Origin: a virus | Taxonomy: Duplodnaviria > Heunggongvirae > Uroviricota > Caudoviricetes | Reading direction: 5' to 3' (one strand) | Length of the DNA: 21,429 nucleotides | IMG/VR virus record: IMGVR_UViG_2565956608_000001 | Span: 1-21,429 of that record | Part shown: positions 2,582-3,536 of the stretch, one piece after another | Layout: every line of letters begins with the position of its first letter | Numbering within the stretch: the first letter of the stretch is position 1 | Translations under genes and position numbers: made by a program | Notes under the pieces: generated by a model | Databases searched by the model: none | What the model saw: the letters and a program-made list of their open reading frames with translations, nothing else | Told to the model about the DNA's origin: nothing

Positions 2582-3460
2582 TTAAAGTTTAATTGAGTGG
2601 CACGCTCTATCACGTATCGCTGCGAATGAAGCTATCTCTTTAAGTGCCCAGCTTTGCTCAGCCATTAAATGGCGAAGTGCTTTTAGTTCAGCTCTTACTG
2701 CTGAAACGTCATACCCCGCTTTTGTCAGAATATTGATTAGTTTATACGCCGGACTGCATTCAACGAGTGCGCTGCGGTCAAGAGCAACAGTATCACCGCA
2801 TTGCTGCCTGATAATGGCGTAAGGTGCATTTTCAGCAAACCATGAAATCGGGAAGTTAATATCCAGTTTTGGCGCTGGTAACTCTTCTTGTTTGCCAATG
2901 AACTCACCTTCAAGCACTACCCTGTGGATGTACTCTACGGCCAGCGGGATTTGTTCAATTGAAAGTTCATCAATGCTGTCAATACCAAACCGCTGATGAA
3001 CCATATTGTATGCATCGTCATAGCGAAGTCCTTTCTTTCCTACCAGCATGTTTACTGCATCGCGTAGCGGTGTTCTTTCCTCAACAGTGGTTTTCTTTCC
3101 TTTTACATACTCGCCATGTTTGCGAATTGAAGGCAGAACTTCTGCTGTTACCCACTTGCGGAATTTGTGCGGGACTGAACCTTTATTGACTGCATCGCGG
3201 CAGCGCAGAACCAATGTATACATACCTGATTCGCTCACAATGCTTAGATTCTGCTCACCACCAAGGGTGTAACTTAAAGTTACTCCCTTTTCATCGTCAT
3301 CAAGTGCAGTAAGCGCCTTGCGTGAGTTAGTCAAATCTAAAGCATCACAAACATCTTTAGCTACAAACCACGGCTCACCGCACTTGTTGATGACGCGGAT
3401 TTCACTGTCGCCGAATTTGAAGATGGTGAAATCGTTTTGTGCCTTTGCTATACTTTTCAT
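2582..3460 (-). CDS. ant: Antirepressor Ant (Bro-N/AntA-type N-terminal domain)
   Basis: Translation from ATG 3460 is [43 protein letters not shown]..., a Bro-N-like N-terminus, placed as in P22 immI (arc then ant, just before the tailspike). An AGGAAA RBS sits 7 nt upstream of this ATG. The longer 314-aa ORF in the track starts at a GTG at 3526. Confidence 0.8.
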
Positions 3461-3461
3461 G

Positions 3462-3536
3462 TCAATATTTCCTAATCCGATTTGTTGATGCCGAAGCCCT
3501 GACTGTTCCCGCAGTTGGGGCTTCACTGTTTTTGTA
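3462..3536 (+). ncRNA. sar: Candidate sar-like antisense RNA covering the ant RBS and start, ending in an intrinsic terminator
   Basis: On the plus strand a 13-bp stem (GAAGCCCUGACUG / CAGUUGGGGCUUC, 3493..3524, with two G-U wobbles that pair only in the plus-strand transcript) and loop UUCCCG is followed by ACUGUUUUUGU. A possible promoter lies inside the ant 5' coding region (-35 GTGAAA 3426..3431, -10 TATACT 3450..3455). Predicted length is about 70 nt, similar to P22 sar. The TSS is inferred, not observed. Confidence 0.45.

Follow-up and report, generated by a model that had tools for sequence, protein, structure and literature searches.

A probable homologue of the P22 sar antisense RNA opposite the antirepressor gene ant of a P22-like Escherichia coli phage

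The small antisense RNA sar controls the antirepressor gene ant in the immI region, where it has also been annotated in phage epsilon34; in P22 it is one of three controls on ant, the others being exerted by Mnt and Arc (PMC2629481). Transcription of ant also proceeds from PLATE, which is not repressible by Arc, and sar acts on such transcripts (PMC12111858). Reads of sar have been recovered in small-RNA sequencing of P22 (PMC13397905). On the respective promoters, Psar and Pant, our search of the literature yielded nothing new.

Two other kinds of small RNA bear comparison with sar. One is c4 of phages P1 and P7 (immI of P1), a small phage RNA that silences the antirepressor gene ant: it pairs with the leader upstream and so prevents translation. 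It arises, however, by processing of the very transcript that contains its target, and works by way of translational coupling with icd, rather than being a convergently transcribed cis-antisense RNA. The other kind comprises plasmid countertranscript RNAs (e.g. ctRNA_pGA1, RF00236), which are, like sar, short antisense RNAs with a terminator hairpin opposite a leader.

The locus described here belongs to a stretch of viral DNA of 21,429 nucleotides (IMG/VR record IMGVR_UViG_2565956608_000001, positions 1 to 21,429), referred to throughout as the window. It represents the late region of a P22-like phage or prophage of E. coli, with the late operon on the minus strand, and matches P22-like phages of the genus Lederbergvirus; its best matches – phages EC.P3, E212 and CUS-3 – show about 95% identity in a mosaic pattern. 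The gene order, mnt, arc, ant, terminator and tailspike gene, is that of P22 immI, with orf73 as an additional gene between arc and ant (Table 1). The segment of interest is antisense to the leader and ribosome-binding site (RBS) of ant and lies between ant and its upstream gene, with mnt divergent. For orf73 itself, no Pfam, NCBIfam or PDB relative was found; P22 has nothing between arc and ant at this position, and other phages carry different small genes there, such as one for a ClpX C4-type zinc-finger protein in some E. coli prophages.

Table 1. Features of the predicted sar locus and its immI neighbourhood in the window
Feature	Position	Strand	Description and basis
Tailspike gene	1..2459	-	819-aa open frame from 2459, continuing past the window edge; tailspike annotated there in relatives
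Terminator-like hairpin after ant	2523..2542	-	Counterpart of P22 ant terminator
ant (target)	2582..3460	-	292 aa, BRO-N domain, phrog_245 anti-repressor Ant; ATG 3460-3458
Psar -35-like hexamer GTGAAA	3426..3431	+	4/6; inside ant CDS; promoter scan and P22 Psar alignment
Psar extended -10, TG-c-TATACT	3446..3454	+	Complement of ant codons 3-5 (Ser-Ile-Ala); TG at 3446-3447, TATACT at 3449-3454
Predicted sar RNA	3461..3533	+	Start G3461, 3′ end within U-run 3529-3533, ~69-73 nt; RF00262 and R1
Stem-loop I	3461..3489	+	7-bp stem (3461-3467/3483-3489), 15-nt loop (3468-3482); fold
Anti-Shine–Dalgarno UUUCCU in loop I	3468..3473	+	Complementary to ant SD AGGAAA; sequence and fold
ant Shine–Dalgarno AGGA	3470..3473	-	9 nt upstream of ATG, covered by sar
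Stem-loop II, terminator hairpin	3493..3524	+	14 bp, three G.U pairs, 4-nt loop UCCC; fold and terminator scan
Terminator tail ACUGUUUUUG	3525..3534	+	U-run 3529-3533; terminator scan
orf73	3523..3744	-	73 aa, phrog_11805, function unknown; upstream of ant in same operon; 3′ end overlaps sar 3′ end
arc-like repressor gene	3741..3881	-	46 aa; Pfam Arc PF03869, E = 3.7e-8
Candidate Pant, TTGACT-17-TACTAT	3912..3940	-	Consensus match only; position as expected from P22
mnt-like repressor gene	3987..4235	+	82 aa, Arc/RHH fold; Pfam Arc E = 3e-10, phrog_795

The relation of the segment to ant depends on where ant begins. RefSeq annotates the same 879-nt coding sequence in a 98% identical prophage. 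A start at GTG 3526, which would give the longest open reading frame (314 aa) and place sar inside the coding sequence, was rejected because ATG 3460 has AGGA 9 nt upstream and is homologous to the P22 ant start, because RefSeq uses the ATG in that prophage and because BRO-N begins at residue 20. The ant frame is open upstream through the whole sar region (3461-3526, minus strand) as far as this GTG; in GF-2 and SPN3UB the annotated ant coding sequence has such an extended start and overlaps arc, which is probably a mis-annotated over-extension.

Further upstream, the arc–mnt intergenic region contains a tandem 21-nt direct repeat (GGTACGCAT..., 3901-3921 and 3922-3942, 76% identical) and an 18-nt inverted repeat (3916-3933 and 3937-3954). 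Together (3901-3954) they overlap back-to-back promoter-like sites at 3940-3912 on the minus strand and 3930-3958 on the plus strand, and they are probably Arc/Mnt operators. This promoter arrangement differs from that of P22, in which Pant and Pmnt overlap fully.

The original prediction for this locus was that an antisense RNA resembling sar, some 70 nt long, lies opposite the ant RBS, and comparison with the described family bears it out. The Rfam model for sar, RF00262, matches the window at 3462-3527 on the plus strand with 59.9 bits (gathering score 43; E = 2.6e-10), over its full length (model positions 1-68 of 68) and as the sole gathering-level Rfam match in the 21-kb window, whereas the reverse strand of the segment reaches only 14.9 bits. 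A covariance model of our own, R1, gives 86.3 bits over 3461-3534. In P22, Psar, sar (NC_002371 15021-15090) and the sar terminator are all annotated, and the segment can be aligned with them base for base; BLAST with the region finds matches in P22, CUS-3, Emek and others, and in epsilon34, which carries a sar annotation. Positions 3461 to about 3533 on the plus strand thus very probably encode a homologue of P22 sar, which represses the antirepressor gene ant as a cis-encoded antisense RNA; as judged from its sequence, the element is a true member of the family rather than merely 'sar-like'.

Other families fared differently. The ctRNA_pGA1 model scores 21.3 bits in the window (gathering score 45), on the terminator hairpin alone and in a different context; both it and DUF3800-VIII were rejected as the family of the element, their matches being sub-threshold and resting on that hairpin. 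The c4 RNA of P1 and P7 is not homologous to the window sar: the window has no gathering-level match to the Rfam c4 model, and 3300-4100 has none even when E values up to 10 are allowed.

As to transcription, a promoter had been expected inside the 5′ coding region of ant, and the promoter scan predicts one there: GTGAAA-17-TG-n-TATACT, at 3426-3454 on the plus strand and within ant codons 3-12, which aligns with the annotated Psar of P22, GTGTTA-17-TATACT (L001 1482-1510). In P22, as in the window, Psar lies in the first ant codons and has TATACT with an upstream TG. The -35 hexamer of the predicted promoter is weak, and the region holds three promoter-like matches against 2.9 expected, a level at which the Psar match alone is no better than chance; the match carries weight because it is homologous to P22 Psar. 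The RNA is predicted to start at G3461, instead of the 3462 first proposed, because the P22 sar annotation begins at the base adjoining the ant ATG: G3461 is the counterpart of this +1, and in both phages the start adjoins the ATG, with sar antisense to the ant leader in each. The length predicted for the RNA is about 69-73 nt, compared with the 68-69 nt or so characteristic of sar.

A hairpin-anchored sample of homologues (sample 1, described below) adds a further element, the island TTGcTAnAcTnnTCAT, which takes in both the ant start codon and the extended -10 box and is kept across about 13 classes of ant 5′ sequence, among them ant genes with three N-terminal domains: BRO-N, P22_AR_N and KilA-N. 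The promoter-like match is not statistically distinctive by itself, as would be expected if the hairpin were a mere terminator for diffuse plus-strand antisense transcription from ant or the tailspike gene, with no dedicated promoter and no discrete small RNA. We consider this extremely unlikely, as the TG-n-TAnACT box is conserved at a fixed distance from the ant ATG across unrelated N-terminal domains, in every variant stem I starts precisely at the predicted +1, and the Psar of P22 is annotated at the homologous site.

Folding this RNA with a thermodynamic program, a check that had been proposed with the original prediction, yields two hairpins. The plus strand of 3462-3536 folds at -28.2 kcal/mol (z = -6.14; 0/200 shuffles as good), compared with -18.0 kcal/mol for the minus strand (z = -2.35), and the minimum free energy and centroid structures agree on a layout in which a 5′ stem-loop carrying the anti-Shine–Dalgarno (anti-SD) sequence is followed by a 3′ terminator hairpin. 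P22 sar likewise has two hairpins, with the anti-SD in loop I.

The second hairpin had been described as a 13-bp stem followed by a U-tract on the plus strand, and both are present at the positions given: the 13 pairs run from G3493-C3524 to G3505-C3512, and ViennaRNA adds a closing U3506.G3511, making 14. The two wobbles noted at the time, U3500.G3517 and G3501.U3516, are confirmed, and the closing pair is a third. Being G.U on the sar strand, these pairs become mismatches in the sense RNA, so that the minus-strand copy of the hairpin splits into 8 + 4 bp around an internal loop. The element, in turn, extends beyond the gap between orf73 and ant in which it had been placed: the orf73 stop codon (3523-3525) takes up the last two bases of the 3′ arm, and the U-run falls within the final codons of that gene. 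In the terminator scan the site appears on the plus strand only; over 1.1 kb, three terminator-like sites were found against 0.7 expected. The U-run begins 4 nt past stem II, which is not ideal for an intrinsic terminator, and the spacer of P22 sar is similar (3 nt).

Set against P22 sar in detail, the window copy combines an almost unchanged 3′ half with a diverged 5′ part. The terminator hairpins are identical at 31/32 positions, one loop base being different, and the tail is ACUGUUUUUG in the window versus AACUUUACG in P22, the window having the longer U-run. By contrast, identity is only about 52% over the 5′ 32 nt, the part that covers the RBS, and kinetic details may differ; stem I is GUCAAUA/UGUUGAU in the window and GUUGGU/ACUGAC in P22, a compensated change. 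In both phages the immI context is followed by a terminator and the tailspike gene, but the gene abutting the sar terminator is orf73 in the window and arc in P22. The N-terminal domain of Ant, too, varies: BRO-N in the window, P22_AR_N in P22 and CUS-3, and KilA-N in Salmonella phage vB_SemP_Emek (JQ806763). These differences from P22 sar are minor and leave the kind of element unchanged.

Emek otherwise resembles the window in its arc-orf73-ant layout, hairpin and tail, with 88% identity over 121 nt, although its -10 box, TAAGCT, is weaker. E. coli phage EC.P3 is 98% identical to the window over the 5′ part of sar.

Two samples of homologues were used to look at the family as a whole. Sample 1 consists of IMG/VR contigs with the exact 32-nt hairpin (at least 120 contigs). 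Their flanks are mosaic, with about 13 classes of ant 5′ sequence and about 20 downstream classes in some 40 combinations, and the T-run after the hairpin is kept in all of the roughly 20 unrelated downstream classes. All 28 distinct 5′ variants (28/28) fold into two hairpins, with stem I beginning at the predicted +1, and 4/7 stem I pairs are changed on both sides. Nearly the only variable base of hairpin II in this sample is in its loop (window 3507-3510), which reads UUCCCG at 92 loci and UUACCG at 33; among the loci listed, each form occurs across several flank classes.

The second sample, of homologues found through the promoter/ATG junction, gives a rather different picture of hairpin II, which here varies widely, with compensatory changes that keep the pairing and with the U-run retained. 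Its apparent invariance in the first sample arises because that sample was anchored on the exact hairpin. From this second line of work the covariance model R1 was built, with 50 homologues aligned: 94.6% of cells pair (slid controls, only 29-48%), and 14/21 pairs are changed on both sides, comprising 6/7 in stem I and 8/14 in stem II, where 96.5% of cells pair. None of 500 shuffles reaches any of the five measures, a statistic inflated both by the fitting of the alignment to the model and by the relatedness of the sequences. Compensatory variation that preserves pairing, layout and U-run points to selection on the RNA structure rather than on the DNA sequence.

These data also bear on the idea of the segment as a conserved joint for recombination, or as an inactive sar relic, kept through module exchange and not for RNA production. 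Such a joint would accord with the presence of one exact hairpin in all contigs of the first sample between unrelated classes of flanks on both sides, and the CUS-3 record indeed labels the stretch 'boundary sequence'. Once the promoter-anchored scan had shown the invariance to be a sampling effect, an invariant joint was rejected as the main explanation. The wider idea is highly improbable, given that the hairpin varies in promoter-anchored homologues with compensatory changes and with the two-hairpin layout kept, that the -10 box and T-run are conserved independently of the flanks, and that ant, arc and mnt are intact in the window.

Which strand is transcribed can be asked of the same alignment. 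After removal of three reverse-strand rows, leaving 47 homologues for the strand counts, cells with G.U number 202 and those with A.C 6, and in 47/47 the sar strand folds more stably than the complement (mean -29.3 vs -19.3 kcal/mol); the family as a whole thus sustains the original suggestion that the structure favours a plus-strand RNA. It might be argued instead that the hairpin acts mainly in the sense (minus-strand) arc-orf73-ant or late transcript, as an attenuator, processing site or stability element, and that the plus-strand RNA is incidental. The complement does form a hairpin too, exactly at the orf73/ant junction and with the minus-strand energy and z-score given above, and it has been proposed that read-through into the tailspike gene across the ant region is controlled (PMC2629481). 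The bias of the wobbles and of stability towards the sar strand nevertheless makes a mainly sense-strand role most improbable, as do the lack of a U-run after the hairpin on the minus strand, where the scan calls no terminator, and the folding of a 106-nt sense segment, which is no better than that of shuffles (z = -0.57).

For the antisense RNA, the following sequence of events can be proposed, with transcription, pairing and repression of ant in this phage inferred from P22. RNA polymerase would start at G3461 from the extended -10 promoter embedded in ant codons 3-5 and would move away from ant, against the direction of the arc-orf73-ant and late-operon transcripts, until it stopped at the predicted plus-strand-specific intrinsic terminator (hairpin 3493-3524, U-run 3529-3533). 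The RNA of about 70 nt would then fold into its two hairpins, with loop I exposing the anti-SD UUUCCU. Because the RNA is cis-antisense, its complementarity to the ant leader is complete between -1 and about -70, and pairing should therefore occlude the RBS: the Shine–Dalgarno (SD) sequence would be buried and translation initiation blocked, and the duplex may also be cleaved. While the start, the folding and the coverage of the SD are predicted from sequence and homology, repression itself is a matter of analogy, and silencing of ant through pairing of sar with its RBS is the most likely outcome in this phage. In this way sar would keep Ant from being made from transcripts beyond Arc/Mnt control, e.g. 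late-operon read-through towards the tailspike gene; the logic of P22 sar fits the window because here, too, the late operon reads through immI to that gene.

The element is not confined to this phage. The 115-nt region has matches in 663/5426 complete E. coli genomes, and E. coli strains with this type of immI include O104:H4 C227-11, ETEC-2264 and O114:H49 90-9280. A scan of species-representative genomes gave one match only, in Pectobacterium brasiliense, and is uninformative on prevalence; that copy (L130 5872-5947) has an exact P22-type terminator hairpin and a sar match of 47 bits, and lies outside the usual Salmonella and E. coli hosts. In E. coli strain 203740 (NZ_CP025913; L005 1-3900) there are two tandem immI modules, both with sar-type hairpins: one complete, with ant, arc and mnt, and a second made up of a truncated BRO-N ant pseudogene with orf73, arc and mnt.

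Sar homologues with compensated hairpins were also seen in the Klebsiella phages ST101-KPC2phi6.1 and ST899-OXA48phi17.1 and in Edwardsiella phage GF-2 (L126 1219-1291, L127 1222-1294 and L128 1217-1292). The Rfam sar model, whose gathering score is 43, gives Klebsiella and Edwardsiella phage copies only 38.6 and 32.1 bits and has no match at E up to 0.01 for the ST899-OXA48phi17.1 copy, whereas R1 detects each of the three, at 40-55 bits. Being too narrow, the Rfam model misses diverged but clear homologues.

A more far-reaching proposal can be made about the sar cassette, by which we mean the Psar -10 box in ant codons 3-5, the variable stem-loop I and the terminator hairpin. The cassette might be a portable regulatory adaptor that has been recombined onto antirepressors with at least three unrelated N-terminal domains and next to many upstream genes, with the variants of stem-loop I serving as specificity classes and with orf73 perhaps affected as well; we regard this as unlikely. 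Computed energies are about -50 to -65 kcal/mol for cognate duplexes versus -7 to -28 kcal/mol for non-cognate ones. If the proposal were true, co-resident P22-like phages of different stem-loop I classes would not cross-silence each other's ant, and orf73, with its 3′ end overlapped by sar, might be affected too.

Sar is an already known kind of RNA, and the window copy is an ordinary but unannotated member of its family. Annotation of a sar RNA is likewise absent from the four related records examined – the two GenBank records of Emek and CUS-3 and two RefSeq E. coli prophages – which list only proteins at the locus. The finding, of little importance beyond annotation, supplies a missing non-coding RNA feature for this phage as well as for hundreds of E. 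coli prophages, and the clean asymmetry between G.U and A.C in the sar family supports the assignment of its strand from sequence alone.
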